The notes beneath the pieces are model-generated. The model saw only the letters and a program-made list of their open reading frames with translations. It did no database searches and was not told the DNA's origin. From a virus (lineage: Duplodnaviria; Caudoviricetes): 39,923 bases of DNA. The translations under genes were made by a program, and so were the position numbers. This document shows, one piece after another, positions 1,456 through 37,527 of this stretch; positions within the stretch are counted from its first letter, which is position 1; each line of letters opens with the position of its first letter. The stretch is taken from IMG/VR virus record IMGVR_UViG_3300035492_000269, positions 1 through 39,923 of that record; one strand, given 5' to 3'.

Positions 1456-2262
1456 TCAGGCCAACGCCGGCAGCGTGACCAGCTGATACACATACGGCCG
1501 CGCACCTCCGGGGCCAGTGGGTGACAGCCGCACCCGCTTGTAACCGAGCAACCGCAGGCAGCTGCCGACGGACGTTTGCGTGCCGCGGTCGTTGACCAGC
1601 TGCAGGGCTTCTATCACTTGCTGCACGCTGAAGCCTTGCGGCCAGTCGTTGGCTACCAGGTGCGCACGGATGCGTTGCTGCAGCTCATAGGCTTTGCGCT
1701 GCGGAGCTGGCAGGTCTGGGCCATCCAGCCAGGGGCTGGCGTCCAGTTCTGCTGCCAGATCCACACCGGTGGTGCGCTCGGCTGCTTGATTGGCTCGGGT
1801 GGCGGCCAGCCGGCGCGGCATGCCCATGCTGCGGCCGACGGTGTAGAGCGAGCGAAACACCCGCCCTGCGGCTACCACCTCTTCCGCTTCTACCCGCAGC
1901 GCTCTGGGTGCTGGCTCTGGATCGGGCTGCGTGTTGGGCATCACGTACCCGCCGTATTTGCGGACGCTGGGCAGCACCTCAGCGGTGACCCACTTCTTAA
2001 AGCGCTTGGCCGAGGCCTTGCGGCTGCGAAGGATCGCGGAGTACAGGCCGGACTCATTGATGATCAGCATGTCCTGCTCACCGCCAAGGGTACTCACAAT
2101 ATGAGTACCCTTCTCATCATCGTCCAGATTTCTGACCATATTGCCGGCGTCGCGATACTCCAAAGCCAAAGCGACATCACCAGCGACCCACCACGGCTCA
2201 CCGTTCACCAATACCACGCGCACGGGCTTATCATCAAACGCAAACTCGATAGGCAAGCTCAT
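1456..2262 (-). CDS. BRO-N domain phage antirepressor
   Basis: FDDKPVRVV..GEPWWVAGDVALALEY, INESGLYSAILRSRK, AKRFKKWVTAEVLPSVRKYGGY. Confidence 0.9.
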   Translation of the reverse strand: MSLPIEFAFDDKPVRVVLVNGEPWWVAGDVALALEYRDAGNMVRNLDDDEKGTHIVSTLGGEQDMLIINESGLYSAILRSRKASAKRFKKWVTAEVLPSVRKYGGYVMPNTQPDPEPAPRALRVEAEEVVAAGRVFRSLYTVGRSMGMPRRLAATRANQAAERTTGVDLAAELDASPWLDGPDLPAPQRKAYELQQRIRAHLVANDWPQGFSVQQVIEALQLVNDRGTQTSVGSCLRLLGYKRVRLSPTGPGGARPYVYQLVTLPALA

Positions 2263-2726
2263 GACTCGCCCTCCTCGCTGCGCTCATCAAAACGCAGCCC
2301 AGCATTGACCAGGGCCAGCAGCGCCTCATCGCTTTGAGCATCCAAGCCGCCCTCCAGATCGCACACAGCCACCTCCAACCACGCGTCCAGCTCAGAGAAG
2401 AAGCCGACCACCTGCCCACGCAGAGCGGACTGCTCCGGCGTTAACGCGCTCGCAGCGGCCGGGCCGATCATATCCAGCACGATCCACTGGAGCGCGCCCA
2501 AGCCCTCCGGCCGACCGTGCTGCTTGAGGTACTTCAGGTAAATGCGAGCCAGCCCGCGGCCTACTTCGTTGCCGCCGGCGTAGCCGCCCGTTCTGGGCAC
2601 GCCCCAAAAGCTGAACTGAGTGCGGCCGCGCACGGGGCCAATGAAGGGTAAGCGATGCAGCGGGAGATCCCGCCGGTTGTTGAAGTGCAGCGGAGCAGCC
2701 GCCGGCGCCTGCGCTTGAACGCTCAT
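2259..2726 (-). CDS. Hypothetical phage protein in the antirepressor operon
   Basis: 155-aa ORF with ATGA-type overlaps to both neighbours and GGAGG RBS. Confidence 0.75.
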   Translation of the reverse strand: MSVQAQAPAAAPLHFNNRRDLPLHRLPFIGPVRGRTQFSFWGVPRTGGYAGGNEVGRGLARIYLKYLKQHGRPEGLGALQWIVLDMIGPAAASALTPEQSALRGQVVGFFSELDAWLEVAVCDLEGGLDAQSDEALLALVNAGLRFDERSEEGES

Positions 2727-2896
2727 TGGGCACCTCCGCGGGCTTCCAGGTCGCGGGCTTTGGCCATGGCCGCGTTGTAACGCTTGAGCCGGACAGACAG
2801 GGAGGAATCCGCATGCAACGCAGTAAGTGCCTGAGCACGATAGCGGGCAGCGCGATTTTTGAACGGATTGAGGGTAAGAATAGGACGGTTCGGCAT
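2723..2896 (-). CDS. 57-aa basic leader protein (icd/kil position) of the C4-controlled operon
   Basis: MPNRPILTLNPFKNRAARYRAQ...GGAQ; its RBS (CACGAGG) overlaps the C4 b2 target; coupled to the next gene. Confidence 0.7.
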   Translation of the reverse strand: MPNRPILTLNPFKNRAARYRAQALTALHADSSLSVRLKRYNAAMAKARDLEARGGAQ

Positions 2897-2949
2897 GTTA
2901 GTAGCCTCGTGAGTAGCGGTCTGTTTCCGCTCGCCCCGTCGCCAAACAG

Positions 2950-3026
2950 GGTGAGCGAACCGTGCAGGTTGGCGAACCGGACTCACGAGCCGGCAGACCC
3001 GAAGGTCTCCCACACGGCCCGCCCAT
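2950..3026 (-). ncRNA. C4-type antisense RNA
   Basis: Minus strand folds as a cloverleaf with a GACC-UUCG-GGUC arm and loops CUCGUGAGU and UUCGCCAAC; complementary targets upstream (3093-3101, 3080-3085) and downstream (2938-2946, 2906-2914), as in P1/P7 immI. Confidence 0.85.
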
Positions 3027-3132
3027 AAAGGCCTTGCCGTGTTGCGGACACAAAAAAACCGCGCAATGGCGGTGTCCGCCGTGAGGTAACGAGTCGCCAA
3101 ACCCGTGTCGCTGAATTTGCAGCGACACGGAA

Positions 3133-3161
3133 AAGGTAGCCGGATTGAGGCTGCAGGTCAA
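3133..3161 (-). promoter_or_regulatory. Sigma70 promoter of the C4-antirepressor operon
   Basis: TTGACC-17 nt-TACCTT on the minus strand, followed by hairpin CCGTGTCGCTG-CAAATT-CAGCGACACGG. Confidence 0.7.
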
Positions 3162-28785: not shown

Positions 28786-29005
28786 GGCGTACCCCCTTTT
28801 GCTTGTGCTCAAACAGTGCTTGGCAATCCACGCAGCGAATGCAGCCGCAGCTGCTCAGCGCCGCCAGGCGTTCAGGTGCAATCGGGTCGCCGCAGTCTTC
28901 ACACTCAGGCGCGACCGTGCGCAAGGCATTGGCCGAACGGTCGGCCAACGTGCGGTCCAGGTAGCGCTGCACGTTGTCGGTGGCAATATCCGCGTTATCA
29001 GCCAT
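28778..29005 (-). CDS. TraR/DksA C4 zinc-finger protein (PtrB/PA0612-like)
   Basis: MAD.AD.A start; CEDCGDPI..ERL....C.RCVDCQ. Confidence 0.9.
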   Translation of the reverse strand: MADNADIATDNVQRYLDRTLADRSANALRTVAPECEDCGDPIAPERLAALSSCGCIRCVDCQALFEHKQKGVRHG

Positions 29006-29537
29006 GGGCTGGCCCTCCCTCAACGTGGTGGTCCAGCGTGCGCTCAAGCAGCAACAACGCGCCGTAAACGCGCTGAATGAGCTGCTTACACTCGGCCGCC
29101 TCGCTGTGGTCCAGCACCCCATCTGACAGGTGGTGCCCCAAGCGCTCTAGCAGGCCGCTCTGCTTGCGCAATGCTTCGCCCGCGCTCGTCAGCACCTCTG
29201 CCAGAGCCTCTACCTCGCCCCGGTGCTCACGCTGCTGCCGCTCAAGCAACGGCTGCAGGTCTACCCAGCAGGCATTGCCAAAGGCCGCAATCATGGAATC
29301 CACAATGCGCGGGTCGCGTGTGTAGGCGGTGATTTCTTCAACCTCAACGGGCGTGAGGTTATGAGTGCGCTGAGTGGGGCTCAGCTTGTGCTGCATGGTG
29401 GAAGGGTTACGCCCATATTGGGCAGCAAAACCGGCGGTACCGCCGGGCATTTCACGTAACGCGTGATAACAAGCAAGCTCCAGCGGCAACAACTCCCGCT
29501 TGGCCCGCTCGACGCAACTCATGGCTGCTCGACTCAT
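28998..29537 (-). CDS. Phage regulatory CII-family protein (186-type)
   Basis: PGG..G.A...GRN.ST.QHKLSP...THNL, C-terminal L.DG.LD..E; lies downstream of cro. Confidence 0.8.
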   Translation of the reverse strand: MSRAAMSCVERAKRELLPLELACYHALREMPGGTAGFAAQYGRNPSTMQHKLSPTQRTHNLTPVEVEEITAYTRDPRIVDSMIAAFGNACWVDLQPLLERQQREHRGEVEALAEVLTSAGEALRKQSGLLERLGHHLSDGVLDHSEAAECKQLIQRVYGALLLLERTLDHHVEGGPAHG

Positions 29538-29590
29538 GGCAGTTCTCTCCAAAGTCTGCCAGTGCCACAGCACACCTGTTTTGCTACAGT
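29537..29590 (+). promoter_or_regulatory. Putative establishment promoter (pRE/pE-like) with candidate CII sites
   Basis: GTGCCA-17 nt-TACAGT with extended TG; inverted repeat TGGCAG (29537-29542) and CTGCCA (29556-29561) just upstream of the -35. Confidence 0.55.
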
Positions 29591-29595
29591 TGCGC

Positions 29596-29966
29596 TGTGA
29601 GCACTGTCCCAGTGATCACAAACCCCTGGCCGGCTGCTCTGTGGTGGAAACGCCGGCCAGAAAAAAGGCATGGGCCACCGCTCCGTGGTGCCCGTGCCAA
29701 CCTGCCCGCCTATCTGTGGTGGAGACGGCGGGCAACCAACGGCCGGTAAATCTGTGGTGGAGATACCGGCAAGTCCTGATCCAATCAGGTCGGTGATAGC
29801 CGGGCATGCCCGGCAGTCACTACAGCTACATCAACCGATCATCTGTGGTGGAGATGTCGGCCCGGCTTACGCCGGAAGAACTTGGTCTTGGCCCAGCCTC
29901 CCGGCTGTACCGCGACCGAATCCAGCCCGTTACGGGGCTGGCTTTCATCACTGCCATGGAGAGCAG
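29596..29966. ncRNA. Structured cro-cII intergenic element: hairpin array with invariant GTGGTGG/CCACCAC loops
   Basis: Four hairpins (29626-29660, 29703-29734, 29742-29770, 29835-29860) share TCT-GTGGTGG-A(G/A)A while their outer stems differ in sequence yet remain paired; further hairpins are interspersed. Confidence 0.7.
29661..29698 (-). terminator. Putative tR1-like terminator before cII
   Basis: Minus strand GGCACGGG...CCCATGCC stem followed by TTTTTT; contains the CACCAC variant. Confidence 0.55.
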
Positions 29967-29990
29967 ATGTGAAATATGAAACCAAGCGCC

Positions 29991-30221
29991 TTACGCTGCG
30001 GCCTTTCTTCGTGCGACCCGCGTAAGTATTTCCTCTTCACTGAAAGGCTCGCCTGCAGCCTTCGCCAAAGCTGCAGCGTACGTTGTCTCCCCGGTGTAAT
30101 CAGTCCTGGGCAGAGCACCTGCAGCCAGCCACTTGTAGACCGCGCGAGCACTGACCCCGCAGATACCTGCAGCTGCAGTTACGCCGCCAACCTTTGCAAC
30201 AACCTCTCTCAGAGCGCTCAT
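29991..30221 (-). CDS. cro: Cro-like repressor
   Basis: GGVTAAAGICGVSARAVYKW HTH and LPRTDYTGET; divergent from cI. Confidence 0.9.
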   Translation of the reverse strand: MSALREVVAKVGGVTAAAGICGVSARAVYKWLAAGALPRTDYTGETTYAAALAKAAGEPFSEEEILTRVARRKAAA

Positions 30222-30234
30222 AGACAAACCTTTC

Positions 30235-30306
30235 TGAACTTTAGGTACAGATTAACTCGGTACTGAAAGTACAGTCAAGCACGTGCAATAGTGAACCCAT
30301 GGTACA
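30235..30306. promoter_or_regulatory. Right operator: three 15-bp sites plus divergent pR/pRM
   Basis: TGAAC-N5-GTACA (30235-30249), GGTAC-N5-GTACA (30259-30273), TGAAC-N5-GTACA (30292-30306); TTGACT -35 on the minus strand at 30273-30278. Confidence 0.8.
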
Positions 30307-31030
30307 AAATGACGAACTAAGACAAGCCTTTGCCCAACGCCTGAAAGCCGCCCTAAAAAATGTGGGGCAGGAATCTTGGGGGGCTGGCGTTTACTTGCGC
30401 GACGTAGCCGGTGTTTCCGACAAGGCAGCCAGCAAATGGCTGAATGGCGAGACTATGCCTGGCCGTGCCAACATGCTCACCATCGCACACCATCTGGGTG
30501 TACGTGTCGAATGGCTTCAATACGGCGAAGGCTCGCCAAGCAGCAAAGATGTTAAGGACAACAACGTGATAACCGCTGATTTTGCAGGTCGCGGCCGTCT
30601 TAAGGATGGCGAGATCTCAATCCCCCAGTACAACATCCGTGGCGCCATGGGTCATGGACAGGTGCCCGCCGATTACATCGAAACTGTCCGCCACCTGACG
30701 CTGCATGAGTCCCACCTGATTGGCCGGGGAATCTCGTTCAGCAAGGTTGAAAATCTTGCAGTGATCACCGGGTGGGGCCAAAGCATGGAAGGCACCATCA
30801 ACGACGGAGATCCGGTCATCATCGACCGCGGAGTTGACGCCTTTGTAGGTGATGGTGTTTACGTGTTCACTTGGGACAATCTTCTGTACATCAAGCGTCT
30901 GCAGAAGCACTCACCTACTCAGTTCGACATGATCAGCGACAACAAACAGCATAAAGATCAGATAGTTAATGTAAATGAAATAAGAATTCATGCTCGCGTA
31001 GTTCTAGTCTGGAATGCAAAAAAACTATAG
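30299..31030 (+). CDS. cI: CI repressor, XRE HTH plus S24 autopeptidase (PrtR-like)
   Basis: GVSDKAASKWLNGE..P HTH; GQSMEGTINDGD (Ser) and YIKRLQ (Lys). Confidence 0.95.
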   Translation: MVQNDELRQAFAQRLKAALKNVGQESWGAGVYLRDVAGVSDKAASKWLNGETMPGRANMLTIAHHLGVRVEWLQYGEGSPSSKDVKDNNVITADFAGRGRLKDGEISIPQYNIRGAMGHGQVPADYIETVRHLTLHESHLIGRGISFSKVENLAVITGWGQSMEGTINDGDPVIIDRGVDAFVGDGVYVFTWDNLLYIKRLQKHSPTQFDMISDNKQHKDQIVNVNEIRIHARVVLVWNAKKL

Positions 31031-31053: not shown

Positions 31054-32901
31054 ATGTCATCAAAAAACCAGCAGAAACAGCCTTTAGATAAAAAAATAGA
31101 TAGCCTCAAACAGGCACTGGCAGCGAATCAATTTGAGCCGTACATCAGGCACATAAGATTCCCCCATTTCAAGAACTTATCACCTGGCCTTAGCTTATCT
31201 TTTGACTTCCCAATCACAGCGTTAGTCGGGCCAAACGGATCAAACAAAAGTTCAATACTACGGGCTATAGCTGCCTGCCCTCATTATGAGAACCTAGGAG
31301 ATTACTGGTTTTCAACCGACATCGACCCCATAGATGAAAAAGGTGGACGACCACGCTATATCTTTGGGTATTTCAACCCCCCAACAAAATCAATCGTTGA
31401 AGTAATCCAAACACGCATTAAAAAAGAAAAAGACCCTGATTATTGGGAACCCTCTCGACCTATCATTAAAGATGGCATGACCCCCATGCCAGATATCGAT
31501 AAAAGCTTGAGCGGGACCAATCTCAAGGAAGAGCTAAGCAGACTCGGCAGAAAAAAAACCAGATGGTCAGGCATTGAAAAAAACGTATTACTCATTGACT
31601 TCCGAAACGAGATAAGCGCATTTGACAAGGCGCTTTATCATGGCGACGCTAGCTCCCACTCTACAAGAAAAAAGGGGAAAGAGTTTCTAAGAGACAGGTC
31701 TAAGCACCTAAAAAAAGTAATTCAGGAGAACTTGAGTAGCTACAAACCTTTCAAGGGGAAAGAAGAAAAAATCTTACTTCGCGTCGAGCTCACCCAGGAA
31801 GAAGTCGATCAAATATCTTTGATACTTGGACGAGAATACAAAAAAATATCACTAATAAAGCATACGTTATTTGATAGCGAAGGCTTTACTGCAATCATGT
31901 CAACAAACCACTTAGACTACAGCGAGGCATTTGCTGGAAGTGGAGAATTCGCGGTTGTCATGCTGGTTTACAAGCTAAACCAAGCCCCCGCCAAAAGTCT
32001 GATAATCTTAGACGAACCGGAGGTATCCCTACACCCTGGAGCCCAAGTAAAACTGTCTGAATTTCTGATTTCAGTCTGCCTTGCAAACAAACACCAAATA
32101 TTTATAGGAACACACTCAAAGTTCATAATAGAGGCACTTCCAGCAGAAGCAATAACCCTGCTTCAACAAAATCAGATAACCGGGAAAATGGTAGCCCAGC
32201 AGAAAGTTAAGGCCAGTGAAGCATTTTTTCATCTCGGCCACTTAGCGCCGAACAAAACGAAAGTTTTCGTAGAGGATCGACTAGCCGAAGAGCTCGTAAA
32301 ACGTTGCCTCCGCACCATGGGCCCAGGTGCTTTCGACCAATTTGAGATAATTGCATTTCCCGGTGGCGCTCAGACCATTTTAGGCAAATGCATCCCAACA
32401 TTAGTTCAAACAAATGACAACAACAGCTTAATATTCCTTGATGGAGACCAAAAACCCGCTAATGCTCCGCGCATGGCGAACAGCATCCCTGCCACAGATA
32501 CCGAAAGCATCACAAAAGAGATAAAAAACATAACAGGCATTGACCAAATAAAATTCGCGCTACACAGCGGAACAAAAGAGGAAAAAAAACTACAGCAAGA
32601 AAAATTAGAGAGAAGCTACCTAGAGTTCTGCAATAACAATCTTTACTACCTTCCCGCCAACACCCCTGAAGAGTTCATCTGGAATGCTCTTGAGCTTGAC
32701 AAGGAAAGCAAATACAATAGCAGTCCGAGCCATAAAGACAAATTCGCAAATCTCACTCGAGACGAGCTTGCCAAAATGGACAACGAGCAAACCACTTCTG
32801 ACGAAATTCTGAGCCTTCAAGTGCGGTACCTAGCTAAAATCACTGAAAGCAACGAAGACATACAAGGCATATGTGAAATACTTAAAAAGTATCACAACTA
32901 A
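31054..32901 (+). CDS. ABC-ATPase plus TOPRIM nuclease (OLD-like)
   Basis: Walker A GPNGSNKS, signature AGSGE, Walker B/D-loop IILDEPEVSLHP, H-loop GTHS; TOPRIM VFVED, PGGA, LDGD; low GC. Confidence 0.85.
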   Translation: MSSKNQQKQPLDKKIDSLKQALAANQFEPYIRHIRFPHFKNLSPGLSLSFDFPITALVGPNGSNKSSILRAIAACPHYENLGDYWFSTDIDPIDEKGGRPRYIFGYFNPPTKSIVEVIQTRIKKEKDPDYWEPSRPIIKDGMTPMPDIDKSLSGTNLKEELSRLGRKKTRWSGIEKNVLLIDFRNEISAFDKALYHGDASSHSTRKKGKEFLRDRSKHLKKVIQENLSSYKPFKGKEEKILLRVELTQEEVDQISLILGREYKKISLIKHTLFDSEGFTAIMSTNHLDYSEAFAGSGEFAVVMLVYKLNQAPAKSLIILDEPEVSLHPGAQVKLSEFLISVCLANKHQIFIGTHSKFIIEALPAEAITLLQQNQITGKMVAQQKVKASEAFFHLGHLAPNKTKVFVEDRLAEELVKRCLRTMGPGAFDQFEIIAFPGGAQTILGKCIPTLVQTNDNNSLIFLDGDQKPANAPRMANSIPATDTESITKEIKNITGIDQIKFALHSGTKEEKKLQQEKLERSYLEFCNNNLYYLPANTPEEFIWNALELDKESKYNSSPSHKDKFANLTRDELAKMDNEQTTSDEILSLQVRYLAKITESNEDIQGICEILKKYHN

Positions 32902-32903
32902 TC

Positions 32904-33929
32904 ATGAGCATTGACGTTTTCGATTTTTTCTCTGGCTGCGGCGGCACTAGCTGCGGCTTTAAGGCTGCAGGATTCAATATCAAACTTGGCCTAGATATTG
33001 ATCCATCTGCATCAAAAACCTTTGCAGAGAACTTCCCAGAAGCAGAAGTCATAAACGGTGACATTAGAGCACTTTCTACAGACGCGCTCAGTACTGCTAT
33101 AGGAGCCAGGAAAAATAAAATTTTGTTTTCCGGGTGTGCGCCTTGCCAACCATTTTCCAAACAAAACAGGCAAAATAAACCTTCTGACGCTCGCGCCACA
33201 CTATTAGATGAATTTGCTCGATTCGTTGAGCACTGGCTGCCTGATTATGTTTTTATCGAAAACGTACCCGGCATGCAGAATAATTCAAGGAAAAGCGCTA
33301 TATTTAACCGCTTTCTCAAAACTCTGGAAAGGCTGAACTATAGTTACGACTCTGAAGTCGTGGAAGCGCAATGGTTTGGAGTTCCACAAAAACGGCGCCG
33401 ACTGATCCTTGTTGCATCACTCAATAGCCCAGTCAAAATTCCCCAAAGGACACACGGCCCTGATTTGAAGCCCTATTCAACAGTACGGGAATGGATCTAC
33501 GACCTACCCCGGATCAATCACGGCCAAGTCCACCAAAGCGATCCCGACCACTTCGCCCTCGGCCTATCCGAGATAAACTTGGCACGGATTCGGCTTACTC
33601 CCGAAGGCGGAGGCCGAAGCTCTTGGCCAGAGTCACTGCTCATCAATTGCCATCGCAATTACAGCGGTCATACCGATGTATATGGCAGGCTTAGCTGGGA
33701 CAAGCCTGCGGTCGGCCTGACAACCCGCTGTATCAGCTACTCCAACGGGCGTTTTGGCCACCCAGAACAAGATAGAGCTATCAGTCTCAGAGAAGCTGCA
33801 TGCCTACAAACCTTTCCACGAGACTTTCGTTTTCACGGCACCAAGTCGTCGAAGTCGTTGCAGGTGGGCAATGCTGTACCCCCGCTGATGGCTCAGGCAA
33901 TCGCACAAAGCTTTACCAAAATGCAATAG
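32904..33929 (+). CDS. DNA cytosine-C5 methyltransferase
   Basis: FFSGCGG (I), PCQPFS (IV), ENVPG (VI), Q.RRR (VIII), RAISLREAA.LQTFP (IX), QVGNAVPP (X). Confidence 0.95.
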   Translation: MSIDVFDFFSGCGGTSCGFKAAGFNIKLGLDIDPSASKTFAENFPEAEVINGDIRALSTDALSTAIGARKNKILFSGCAPCQPFSKQNRQNKPSDARATLLDEFARFVEHWLPDYVFIENVPGMQNNSRKSAIFNRFLKTLERLNYSYDSEVVEAQWFGVPQKRRRLILVASLNSPVKIPQRTHGPDLKPYSTVREWIYDLPRINHGQVHQSDPDHFALGLSEINLARIRLTPEGGGRSSWPESLLINCHRNYSGHTDVYGRLSWDKPAVGLTTRCISYSNGRFGHPEQDRAISLREAACLQTFPRDFRFHGTKSSKSLQVGNAVPPLMAQAIAQSFTKMQ

Positions 33930-33982: not shown

Positions 33983-34011
33983 TTTACAAATATGTACTTT
34001 TGGTTCATATT
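33983..34011 (+). promoter_or_regulatory. pL-like early promoter with left operator
   Basis: TTTACA-17 nt-CATATT; operator TGTAC-N5-GTTCA at 33993-34007 matches the cro/cI operators. Confidence 0.8.
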
Positions 34012-34014
34012 CTT

Positions 34015-34039
34015 CTCGTCTCTCCACCACAGAGCCGAG
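34015..34039 (+). promoter_or_regulatory. 5' leader hairpin with CCACCAC loop covering the RBS
   Basis: CTCG-T-CTCT-CCACCAC-AGAG-C-CGAG; the 13-mer TCTCCACCACAGA is the exact reverse complement of the array repeat. Confidence 0.65.
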
Positions 34040-34046
34040 GTAAGCA

Positions 34047-34208
34047 ATGAAGACCACCACACTCCACGCGCTGCCATCCTGCAGCGCAGACCGCATCTTT
34101 GAGCTGCGCAGAGCCGCACGCGACGCCGGCGCCCGGTATGTTGCCAGCCGGCCGCGCCTGGTCAGCCGTGCGCCCTCCTCTTCACCACAGGGAGGCGACG
34201 CAGCATGA
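34047..34208 (+). CDS. 53-aa Arg-rich first gene of the pL operon (absent from the ORF track)
   Basis: GAGG RBS; MKTTTLHALPSCSADRIFELRRAARDAGARYVASRPRLVSRAPSSSPQGGDAA; ATGA overlap with the next gene. Confidence 0.75.
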   Translation: MKTTTLHALPSCSADRIFELRRAARDAGARYVASRPRLVSRAPSSSPQGGDAA

Positions 34209-34735: not shown

Positions 34736-34745
34736 GAGGTGGCCC

Positions 34746-35036
34746 ATGTACGCATATACGTTGCAAAGCGCTGCTCAGGCGCTGGGCATCACGCGGCCAG
34801 AGCTGATCAAGCGCATGCGCGCCAAAAGGCTGCTGAACGACCGCAACCTGCCCGCCCAACCACAGCGGCACCGTGCTTATCTGTTTGTGCACGAGAGCAG
34901 CTGGCCGCACCCGTCACTTGGCATGCAGTACAGCAGCTCTACCCGCATTCGCCGGGACGGGCTGCGCTGGCTCGCCTTCCAGCTCGACATGCAACCGCCG
35001 GCACCGCCACCACCGGACCGGGCAGATGTCGCGTGA
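34746..35036 (+). CDS. KilA-C/ANT-like DNA-binding protein
   Basis: TLQSAAQALGITRPELIKRMR...LL...NLP and final T.I...GLRWLA pattern. Confidence 0.65.
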   Translation: MYAYTLQSAAQALGITRPELIKRMRAKRLLNDRNLPAQPQRHRAYLFVHESSWPHPSLGMQYSSSTRIRRDGLRWLAFQLDMQPPAPPPPDRADVA

Positions 35037-35235
35037 CGCTCAGCACCTGCGCATCAACGGCCAGACCGTGCAACCGCTCACGCCCCGCGCCTGGGCAGCC
35101 GCCATTGTGCAACTGCCCACGCTGGCCGAGCGCCGCGCTGCGATGGAGCTGGTCCCGCCCCATTGGCAAGCGCTGGTGCGCACGCACCTGACCATTGCCT
35201 GGAACCACCCACAACGCAACAAGGAGCCATCGTGA
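35026..35235 (+). CDS. Hypothetical early protein, 69 aa
   Basis: MSRDAQ...PRAWAAAIVQL.T..ERRAA...VP.HWQALVRTH; overlaps both neighbours. Confidence 0.6.
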   Translation: MSRDAQHLRINGQTVQPLTPRAWAAAIVQLPTLAERRAAMELVPPHWQALVRTHLTIAWNHPQRNKEPS

Positions 35236-35555
35236 CCGAGGACACAGCCCAACAGGTTCTGCGCCTGCACACGCCGCCCCGGCCAAGCACGCTGGACATG
35301 CTCTTTCGCATGTTTGGCACCGTGCTGGTGCCTCGCGAGGAGCTGCGCGAGCGCCTGTTTCGCAACGTCAATGAAGACCGCTTTAAGCGCGTACTCGGCA
35401 CCCCGCGCCTGCCACTTCCGGTCACCACCCTGGAAGAAAGCCGCGAGGCCCGCCAGTACATCGAGATCCACCATCTGGCCGCCTACATCGACCAGCGCGC
35501 CGCCCGAGCGGACAACACGCTGGCCAAGGCACTGGCACCACCAGAACAACCCTGA
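35232..35555 (+). CDS. PrtN-like (pyocin activator family) protein, copy 1
   Basis: TLDMLFR.FG.VLVP.E.LR...FRN.N...F...LPLPVTTL..S..A..YIEI.HLAAYID; AAGGAG RBS with GTG start. Confidence 0.7.
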   Translation: MTEDTAQQVLRLHTPPRPSTLDMLFRMFGTVLVPREELRERLFRNVNEDRFKRVLGTPRLPLPVTTLEESREARQYIEIHHLAAYIDQRAARADNTLAKALAPPEQP

Positions 35556-35601
35556 CGACCCGGCCGCCACCACCGGCCCCATAAACCACGGAGCAACCAC
35601 C

Positions 35602-36072
35602 ATGGATATGCAACCCACCACCCTTGTTGGCCTATGCATTTTGATCTGCGCACCGCTCGCGCTGTACTTCTACGGCTTGCGCATTGGCCGCGGCGAACGC
35701 GACGTGCAGCACGAGATTGAACGGGATCTGTTGAACAGCAAAGCAAGCCGGCATGAGCGCTTGGCCAGCGAGCAGCAGCACATCGCAGACCGCCAGCAGC
35801 AGACCATCACAGAGCTAAGCGCCCGTCTGCGCGAAGTAAAAGTGCTGCAGGTGCTAGACCGCAGCGCCCTGCTGCAGGCGGCCACCACGCTGGATCTGGC
35901 CGCCCGCACCTTTGACGCGTTTAACGCCCCACAGGCCGAGACCGCGCGCGAGCTGCGCGACGAGTGCCGCAACATGGCCACGCGCCTGGGCTGGGTTGAG
36001 CCAGCACCGCAGAGCCTGAGCACCGCCAGCCCAGAAGATACAGCGCAGGTAATGCAGGGGGGTGCGGCATGA
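35602..36072 (+). CDS. N-terminally membrane-anchored coiled-coil protein
   Basis: Hydrophobic LVGLCILICAPLALYFYG then coiled coil; GGAG RBS. Confidence 0.7.
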   Translation: MDMQPTTLVGLCILICAPLALYFYGLRIGRGERDVQHEIERDLLNSKASRHERLASEQQHIADRQQQTITELSARLREVKVLQVLDRSALLQAATTLDLAARTFDAFNAPQAETARELRDECRNMATRLGWVEPAPQSLSTASPEDTAQVMQGGAA

Positions 36073-36674: not shown

Positions 36675-37252
36675 CTACCTGCACAGCAGCCGCTGCCACT
36701 TACACCACCGCTCCTGCCGCGCTGCTGCGCGGCGGCGACCATCGCTCGGTGCATGAGGCGACCGCCGCACCAGACGGTCGCCCTCACAAAACCAACGGCA
36801 GCGGCATAAAGAGCCACTGCCCCGCAGGGGCAGGCATTATCAATCCCTCAGCCAGCACCCGCAGAACCGCCAATACCCCCACCCAAGGCGTGCGCCACGC
36901 AGCAGAACCGAGCACACCGCTCCGCTCTGGGGGTGGTGCTGCAGCGCAGCTTGTGGAGGGGTATAAGCGAGACCTGAGCCATATCACCATGCCAAAAGCT
37001 TGCGTGAGCTGCCTGCACTACCAAGCCAAGGGGTTCGCCAACGATGCTCACTGCCCATTCTCAACCTGGAATGGGCGCAAGCAGCGAACACCCTACGGCA
37101 CATGCAGCCTGCACAAACAGGAGGTGTTTGCGACCGAGATTTGCACTAGCTACAGCTGCGATCCACAGGTGCACCCCATAGAGGTGGAAAACCGTCCGAG
37201 CCCACGCACGCCCATGCAGGAGCAGCTCGGCCTTGAGGGCTGCGTAAGATGA
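36671..37252 (+). CDS. Hypothetical protein with C-terminal Cys-rich domain
   Basis: Low-complexity N-terminus; C..C.HY...C...G.C..H...C; ATGA overlaps on both sides. Confidence 0.6.
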   Translation: MTTCTAAAATYTTAPAALLRGGDHRSVHEATAAPDGRPHKTNGSGIKSHCPAGAGIINPSASTRRTANTPTQGVRHAAEPSTPLRSGGGAAAQLVEGYKRDLSHITMPKACVSCLHYQAKGFANDAHCPFSTWNGRKQRTPYGTCSLHKQEVFATEICTSYSCDPQVHPIEVENRPSPRTPMQEQLGLEGCVR

Positions 37253-37527
37253 ACACGTTATTCTTGCTCATGGCGCAATACAGCGGGCTGGCAGTGATAC
37301 CGCTAGACAAGGTGTGCACTGACTACTTCAGCCACCTAAGCGTGGAGAAGCTGCAGCGCAAGGTGATGGCGGCAGAGATAGACCTACCGATTGTGCGGAT
37401 GGAGGGCAGCCAGAAAGCCGCGAAGGGAGTGCACGTGCAGGATCTGGCCAAGTACCTGGACGATCAGCGGGCGAAGGCGGTGATTGAGAATGACAAGTTG
37501 CAGGGACGGTATCGCCGCGCAGGATGA
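37249..37527 (+). CDS. PrtN-family protein, copy 2 (candidate excisionase)
   Basis: MNTLFLLMAQY.G.AVIPL..VC.DYF.HL...SQKAAKGVH..DLA.YLD; last gene of the early operon, nearest the integrase. Confidence 0.85.
   Translation: MNTLFLLMAQYSGLAVIPLDKVCTDYFSHLSVEKLQRKVMAAEIDLPIVRMEGSQKAAKGVHVQDLAKYLDDQRAKAVIENDKLQGRYRRAG

Follow-up and report, generated by a model that had tools for sequence, protein, structure and literature searches.

A conserved hairpin array opposite the cro–cII leader of Pseudomonas and Halomonas prophages: a candidate gene for a multi-armed antisense RNA

The C4 RNA of phages P1 and P7 is cut by RNase P from the leader of the operon that it targets, in a layout flanked by a1b1/a2b2 sites. 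The lambda nut/boxB and HK022 put systems have their element both at the head of pL and in the cro–cII interval, and the RsmY/RsmZ/CsrB decoys consist of many hairpins with repeated loops. In the excerpt of PMC12197685, C4 is described as pairing by loop complementarity near the ribosome-binding region and thereby blocking the antirepressor operon; in P1, Icd is needed for expression of ant (excerpt of PMC8201110). The first of these excerpts also presents lambda paQ (aQ), lambda OOP and P22 sar as antisense RNAs of the lysis–lysogeny choice, with paQ activated by CII; each has one main target, and none appears there as a multi-loop RNA acting against several genes of the opposite early operon (PMC12197685). 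At the pE promoter of phage 186, which transcribes cI, the CII half-sites lie at -38 and -58, and the excerpt of PMC6593788 describes no small RNA there.

We analysed an entire virus record of 39.9 kb, hereafter the window. Its early region has the lambdoid order of cII, a cro-like gene, cI, two accessory genes and the pL operon, with the integrase beyond on the opposite strand; judged by cII, the nearest named relative comes from Halopseudomonas. The pL operon contains ORF1, ORF2, a KilAC antirepressor gene, a PrtN-like gene, g6, an HD phosphatase gene and a second PrtN-like gene. The features of this region that are needed below are as follows.

28998..29537, minus strand: cII, of the phage 186 CII (CP76) family (PF06892, E 3e-27; phrog_101)
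29991..30227, minus strand: cro-like gene (phrog_35; P22_Cro score under the cut-off)
30299..31030, plus strand: cI repressor, HTH and S24 peptidase (domain and PHROG matches)
33983..34011, plus strand: predicted pL promoter; its spacer contains an operator-like GTAC-N5-GTTC
34047..34208, plus strand: ORF1, 53 aa, its stop overlapping the ORF2 start (phrog_35204)
34746-35036, plus strand: KilAC-domain antirepressor gene
35602-36072, plus strand: g6, with a hydrophobic N-terminus and without a family match

Operator-like GAAC-N5-GTAC repeats occur at 30236-30305 (pR/cI) and at 33994-34006, in the pL spacer. The slot between cI and pL (31054-33929) holds AAA ATPase and C5 methyltransferase genes that resemble an accessory defence module, and it differs in length between relatives. 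Both PrtN-family (excisionase-like) genes, at 35163-35555 and 37249-37527, belong to the same pL operon, and a gene with a SIR2-like domain (PF13289; 37543-38679, minus strand), possibly anti-phage, adjoins the integrase.

A sequence-only reading had described the cro–cII gap as rich in hairpins and free of any credible gene, and had singled out four hairpins with an identical loop. This description held. The array folds far better than its shuffles on both strands (z -6.44 for minus, -7.02 for plus), and the two strands of the window are near-equal in energy (-214.9 and -212.7). Three ATG/GTG ORFs of 63-100 aa were compared with PHROG and had no match, on which ground a protein-coding reading of the gap was rejected. 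The GTGGTGG loops lie at 29641-47, 29716-22, 29754-60 and 29845-51, and the outer stems that had been named do pair (29626/29652, 29703/29727, 29742/29765 and 29835/29856). The repeated unit is longer than the loop: an 11-mer, TCTGTGGTGGA, has four copies (starting at 29638, 29713, 29751 and 29842), whereas any 11-mer occurred four times in only 3 of 10,000 Markov resamples of the array region. Its single further copy in the whole window lies at the pL leader. The predicted elements of the locus are listed here.

29537..29561, unstranded: inverted repeat TGGCA-N15-TGCCA, predicted CII site (present in 110 of 120 loci)
29562..29567, plus strand: -35-like hexamer GTGCCA, 17 nt before the -10 (position; column conservation in 110 loci)
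29582..29590, plus strand: extended -10, TG-C-TACAGT, with predicted +1 at 29597
29597..29950, plus strand: predicted small RNA gene, antisense to the cro–cII leader, both ends predicted (promoter motif, fold and model R1)
29626..29660, plus strand: hairpin H1, GUGGUGG loop
29667..29698, plus strand: hairpin H2, terminator-like on the minus strand in the window's lineage
29703..29734, plus strand: hairpin H3, GUGGUGG loop
29742..29770, plus strand: hairpin H4, GUGGUGG loop
29835..29861, plus strand: hairpin H5, GUGGUGG loop
29922..29948, plus strand: weak terminator candidate, a hairpin followed by a short U-rich stretch; the terminator of relatives at this place is strong

A long imperfect inverted repeat (29545-29606) encloses the promoter and has the -10 in its loop; in relatives a stem is kept there with a different sequence. 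The repeat could fold only in the pR mRNA or in DNA.

The array had also been called undescribed, and we found nothing to the contrary. Rfam 15 gave no match at the array, its four weak hits (E 0.5-9.5) being far under the thresholds; blastn against known phages returned solely cro/cI matches or one short piece; and the open literature, as represented by listings and the starts of abstracts, held no description of it. Six supplement files of Fremin 2023 (PMC10690425) contain no match, and three others could hold the motif. The material from Weinberg 2010 (PMC2864571) gave one match, which is unrelated, and the Pseudomon-2 motif of that paper is a different one. A Chi-like DNA motif was considered and abandoned, given that the stems covary and that the motif follows translation starts.

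We then examined relatives, using 165 loci (164 of them with cII) gathered by cII-alignment scans and one pattern scan. CCACCAC occurs at most 650 nt upstream of cII in 146 of the 164, a redundant set that includes three truncated loci, and most of the remainder have TTACCAC or CTACCAC in its place. Among 142 distinct loci, hairpins with an ACCAC loop directly before cII are on the cII strand in 160 cases versus 0, and those further out are on the pL strand in 165 versus 3. Conservation in relatives, which had been proposed as a check, was borne out: 30 fluorescens-type arrays, aligned at a mean identity of 81%, have near-fixed loops, and 27 of their 84 pairs have changed on both sides (0 of 500 shuffles). 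A model, R1, made from these 30 fluorescens-type loci, which do not include the window, matches the window at 29634-29875 of the plus strand with an E of 4.5e-6, a result that carries no test of strand because R1 was built on the plus strand. R1 finds the array in 17 of 24 sources, including P. aeruginosa and Halopseudomonas types; in the same 24 it missed phage IPK of Paraburkholderia and six loci of the short Halomonas type. The array of Halomonas phages is shorter, IPK has none, and the isolated P. aeruginosa phages Haddon and vB_Pae_U5 belong to the group. Of 401 genomes sampled for the class, 9 have CP76-like genes, and of 401 sampled for the order, 11. Several of the more distant CP76 loci lack an array: among the 15 loci of this kind, as listed, it is present in at least L191 and one further locus and absent from at least L193 and L201-L206. 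We conclude that the array is an RNA family located upstream of CP76-type cII in Pseudomonas, Halopseudomonas and, in the shorter form, Halomonas prophages.

In three P. putida-type loci (L103:9240-10003, L048 and L098) the whole cassette of inverted repeat, promoter and array is present twice in tandem. The loops of the two copies have diverged, and L048 also duplicates two inner modules.

The punctuation of the array resembles that of a gene on the plus strand, with what looks like a promoter towards cII and a terminator towards cro. TGnTAnnnT keeps a constant spacing to the start of cII in 97 of the 120 distinct loci, compared with 0 and 1 of 50 in the controls. The half-sites of the inverted repeat centre at 29559 and 29539 in the window, which is -38 and -58 from the predicted +1. 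The locus thus shares with 186 pE the CII family (PF06892), an adjacent CII gene, an inverted repeat at -38/-58 and a promoter that faces pR. It differs from 186 pE in having a terminator, usually within about 270 nt of the array promoter: a U-tailed plus-strand terminator is present in 94 of 110 loci, nearly always no more than 20 nt from the cro stop, and its distance from the promoter in relatives is usually ~270 nt or less. On the mRNA strand, an intrinsic terminator (the one type covered) was found in 10 of the 110. The fifth hairpin, H2, had been read as a minus-strand terminator; a U-run does follow 29667-29698 in the window, whereas few relatives have a terminator on that strand.

Folding gave a mixed answer as to strand. 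Consensus folds favoured the plus strand, both in 30 fluorescens-type loci (-102.4 versus -75.8) and in 91 loci (-81.3 versus -69.3), although such comparisons always favour the G-rich strand, via G-U pairs. In ungapped stems, wobble pairs were slightly more frequent for the mRNA strand (188 versus 146); across 7 aligned helices, pair types stood at 14 versus 7 for the plus strand, and G-U/A-U exchanges workable on one strand only were seen in helices 1, 11 and 13. CANGGANG, which we take to be the Rsm motif, has 65 copies on the mRNA strand and 0 on the opposite strand in 133 loci. Both strands of the array may matter.

The loop had been noted to recur in the pL operon, and it does so at three places: the hairpin at 34021-33, the variant at 34178-95 and the hairpin at 35560-76. 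Two further plus-strand copies of CCACCAC, at 35615 and 35882, fall within coding frames. The predicted targets are these.

34021..34033, plus strand: target 1, a 13-nt site in a hairpin where the pL RNA is predicted to start
34178..34195, plus strand: target 2, a variant of the loop whose hairpin spans the ORF2 Shine-Dalgarno
34738..34748, plus strand: candidate target at the start of the KilAC antirepressor gene; this lineage only, may be chance
35560..35594, plus strand: CCACCAC hairpin (35560-76) with a 10-nt site (35585-94), over the g6 Shine-Dalgarno

Target 1 is just upstream of the ORF1 Shine-Dalgarno (34037-40). ORF1 was found in 131 of 142 loci, and 8 of the 11 in which it was missed have less than 3.6 kb upstream; where ORF1 is present, a loop hairpin nearly always directly precedes its Shine-Dalgarno, and ORF1 and ORF2 overlap as ATGA in 117 of 128 loci. 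This overlap recalls the Icd/ant dependence of P1.

For 124 loci we counted the exact matches of at least 9 nt that the array makes with the initial 3.5 kb of pL. In the leader, the plus array strand had 203 matches and the opposite strand 9; at other start regions the counts were 289 and 61, which gives 492 versus 70 for the two classes together. Outside start regions the strands were equal (557 versus 554). Array loops are exactly complementary over 10-17 nt to the pL 5' end (ORF1) and to the g6 Shine-Dalgarno or start codon, and distinct array modules match distinct pL genes. The g6 site, which in many loci spans the spacer and start codon, differs together with its matching module in the window, L010/L211, L086/L216, L015 and the fluorescens group; in the last of these, one loop reproduces the g6 spacer and start codon. 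In the window, the best 3 of 67 Shine-Dalgarno starts were those of ORF1 (13 nt), the antirepressor (11) and g6 (10), the complementarity to the last two start regions, 34738-48 (11 nt) and 35585-94 (10 nt), being provided by H2. When co-folded with the ORF1 leader, H1, H3, H4 and H5 gave -8 to -16 kcal/mol, with 0 of 100 shuffles for each, and H3 with the ORF2 site gave -15; for H2 with the g6 site at 35585, co-folding gave no net energy gain.

Across 33 lineages, with relatedness ignored, arrays scored 9.85 against their own starts and 7.22 against those of others (0 of 5000 permutations), and the own array was the top match in just 3 of the 33. For g6, own and other pairings scored 11.45 and 9.55, compared with 6.40 and 6.37 for a mid-gene control, values inflated by the choice of the 20 lineages after the match had been seen. 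Covariation of array and pL loops, which had been proposed as a test, was seen in part. Array and leader have the same main loop in 88 of 102 loci, TTACCAC arrays are paired with a CCACCAC leader in 0 of 14 (these 14 may represent one event), and L009 has CTACCAC in both; on the other side, the loops are unlike in 14 of 102, and array–leader mismatches show no bias to G-U-compatible types (29 versus 45; 44 distinct pairs). In several lineages loop and target change jointly, if imperfectly.

We consider it probable that the plus strand of the array is the gene for a multi-armed antisense RNA of ~350 nt, predicted to pair with translation starts of the pL operon and likely to damp its expression. 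The promoter, the terminator, the fixed loops and the gene-specific complementarity are most simply explained by an antisense RNA that would act in trans to block pL translation starts. The earlier suggestion of a CII-activated plus-strand RNA that kisses loops at early-gene starts gains from the conserved promoter, the CII-type sites, the terminator and the module-specific matches at pL starts, with the qualification that these are features of sequence. Transcription of the plus strand would start near 29597 and would be raised by CII from the -38/-58 sites, as at 186 pE, and some of this transcription may continue into cI. Contact between a GUGGU loop and its target loop would extend into a duplex and so block ribosome loading. 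A block at ORF1 would likely silence ORF2 too, since the stop of the former and the start of the latter overlap, and the antirepressor gene may be shut off by polarity. After induction, the lytic pR transcript, being fully complementary, would use up the small RNA, giving a toggle. The small RNA is thus likely to be an RNA brake beside the protein repressor.

The same hairpins can be read from the mRNA strands. There, the CCACCAC loops would be sites for a protein, with ORF1 as that protein: either nut/boxB-like sites for an N-like antiterminator, or the operator of a translational repressor with the array as a decoy. This is unlikely in our view, but it retains some weight because of the nut-like positions. 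As in lambda nut, the mRNA strands have a hairpin at the head of pL and in the cro–cII gap, positions that resemble those of nutL and nutR; loop hairpins are confined to those strands; ORF1 is small, nearly always present and the first pL gene; and a shared protein specificity would likewise make the loops change together. ORF1 is modelled as a small beta-alpha-beta unit (pLDDT 75.5) with no meaningful Pfam, PDB sequence, fold or atlas match; its weak fold hits include the RNA-binding L30e and are not significant (E about 0.8-1.6). Unlike lambda nut and N, however, the locus has no conserved intrinsic terminator to pass and no conserved arginine-rich first pL protein: among 46 ORF1 sequences no Arg or Lys is invariant, the invariant columns being M, P and A alone. 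The sequence-only proposal of boxB-like sites that allow passage of a terminator at 29661-98 is correspondingly weakened. Moreover, the matches run past the core into gene-specific Shine-Dalgarno and start-codon letters, and the gene-like promoter and terminator that bracket the opposite strand, a further difference from nut, are left unexplained. A different account keeps the plus-strand geometry of pE and gives the promoter mainly the 186 role of transcribing cI, with the array as a structured leader or a binding region for host RsmA/CsrA on the pR mRNA that tunes cII and with the pL matches as a by-product. We regard this as quite improbable. RNA contigs that span the array, cro and cI in three studies (unstranded) would fit it, as would the strand bias of CANGGANG, and the array shares with Rsm/Csr decoys its many repeated-loop hairpins and GGA loops on the mRNA strand. 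Unlike those decoys, it has no Rfam hit, and its principal loop is GUGGU/ACCAC, without any GGA in the TTACCAC lineage; in about one-third of aligned GGA loops the A of ANGGA is missing (U in 9 of 30), and with 65 motif copies in 133 arrays ANGGA is not found in most loops. A terminator also separates the promoter from cro in most loci, and the excess of matches is restricted to start regions.

Pairing of the plus-strand RNA with the same targets might instead activate them, by opening the hairpins over the ORF1 and ORF2 Shine-Dalgarno sequences, as Gifsy-1 IsrK activates translation of a downstream gene (excerpt of PMC12197685). Both sites do lie in hairpins able to cover the Shine-Dalgarno, and the ORF1 duplex stops just upstream of it. 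Nevertheless, the 5' arm of the ORF1 lower stem precedes the predicted pL start, so that this stem would form only in read-through RNA, the g6 site in many loci covers the spacer and start codon themselves, and an RNA raised by CII that activates lytic genes fits poorly; we think activation very unlikely. Least plausible of all, to the point of being barely credible, is that the hairpins act as DNA, in the form of cruciforms or single-strand signals. The near-equal folding of the two strands in the window would suit such a role, and so would the ORF1 palindrome, which reaches upstream of the predicted start with compensating changes; the exchanges workable on one strand only (helices 1, 11 and 13) argue against it, as do the terminator with its U-tail and the focus on translation starts.

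The array loops are complementary to sequences near the phage's own ribosome-binding regions, as are those of P1/P7 C4 (RF01695; targets RF03163) and the CI RNA of P4. The trans-acting antisense RNA that we favour differs from C4 in size (about 250-350 nt, against 87 for the C4 model), in being apparently its own gene, with promoter and terminator, some 4 kb from its targets, and in having several repeated loops for several genes, with a seed unlike that of C4. RF01695 gave no hit in 29400-30300 up to E 10, nor in seven related loci, and RF03163 gave none near the array. The array was therefore rejected as a C4 RNA, failing both the C4 model and its layout. RF01695 does find the phage's true C4, at 2947-3030, where a1b1 is also present. 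We conclude that the array is a real conserved RNA element that lacks an Rfam entry, probably of the phage antisense-repressor kind, with a CII-type promoter and several predicted target genes.

The true C4 belongs to a separate cassette on the minus strand (1456-3139), with c4-a1b1 at 3086-3139 and a small icd-like frame; its ORF at 1456-2262 resembles, by eye, a Bro-N antirepressor. The phage would then have two antisense systems.

Hints of expression come from RNA-library contigs, which give no strand, end or level and are a weak hint, at a P. aeruginosa-type locus, L170. The cII-side ends of contigs from three studies fall at 2883, 2902 and 2935, compared with a predicted +1 at 2885, and two of the three studies have short, far deeper contigs with adapter ends within 2885-3044. 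In three studies, longer unstranded contigs extend from the array over cro and into cI, as far as its end. A fourth set (X4) has a single flat contig that is probably DNA, and raw reads at L170 numbered 0, 1, 0 and 0 in four runs. Basal activity of 186 pE is negligible without CII (excerpt of PMC6593788), which, by analogy, would fit poorly with an abundant RNA in uninduced cultures.

If the proposed antisense function is right, a widespread group of Pseudomonas and Halomonas prophages connects CII, the decision protein, to an RNA by which the opposite early operon is repressed one gene at a time, a CII-to-RNA link absent from the excerpted accounts of lambda and 186. A broader idea, which we offer tentatively and think rather doubtful, is that this CII-coupled modular antisense RNA forms a second layer of immunity common to phages with unrelated repressors. 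An identical 9-nt seed is present in 9 of 11 Cro sequence groups, and a prophage's RNA would therefore silence the early operon of heteroimmune relatives. An arms race would in that case be documented by the loop variants and the tandem duplications of the cassette, with the lytic pR transcript serving as a built-in sponge. If the antisense function is right, RNA-based immunity between phages with different repressors could be tested directly, which bears on phage therapy and prophage stability, and the array would provide a natural multi-target antisense scaffold with swappable arms, as well as an RNA family missing from Rfam.

Most arrays have a tetraloop hairpin beside the main loop (L170:3030-3042), which is absent from the window. 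The tetraloop reads UCCG on the antisense strand and CGGA on the mRNA strand, and the hairpin could be a second seed for the GGA of Shine-Dalgarno sequences, a stable end, or an Rsm site.
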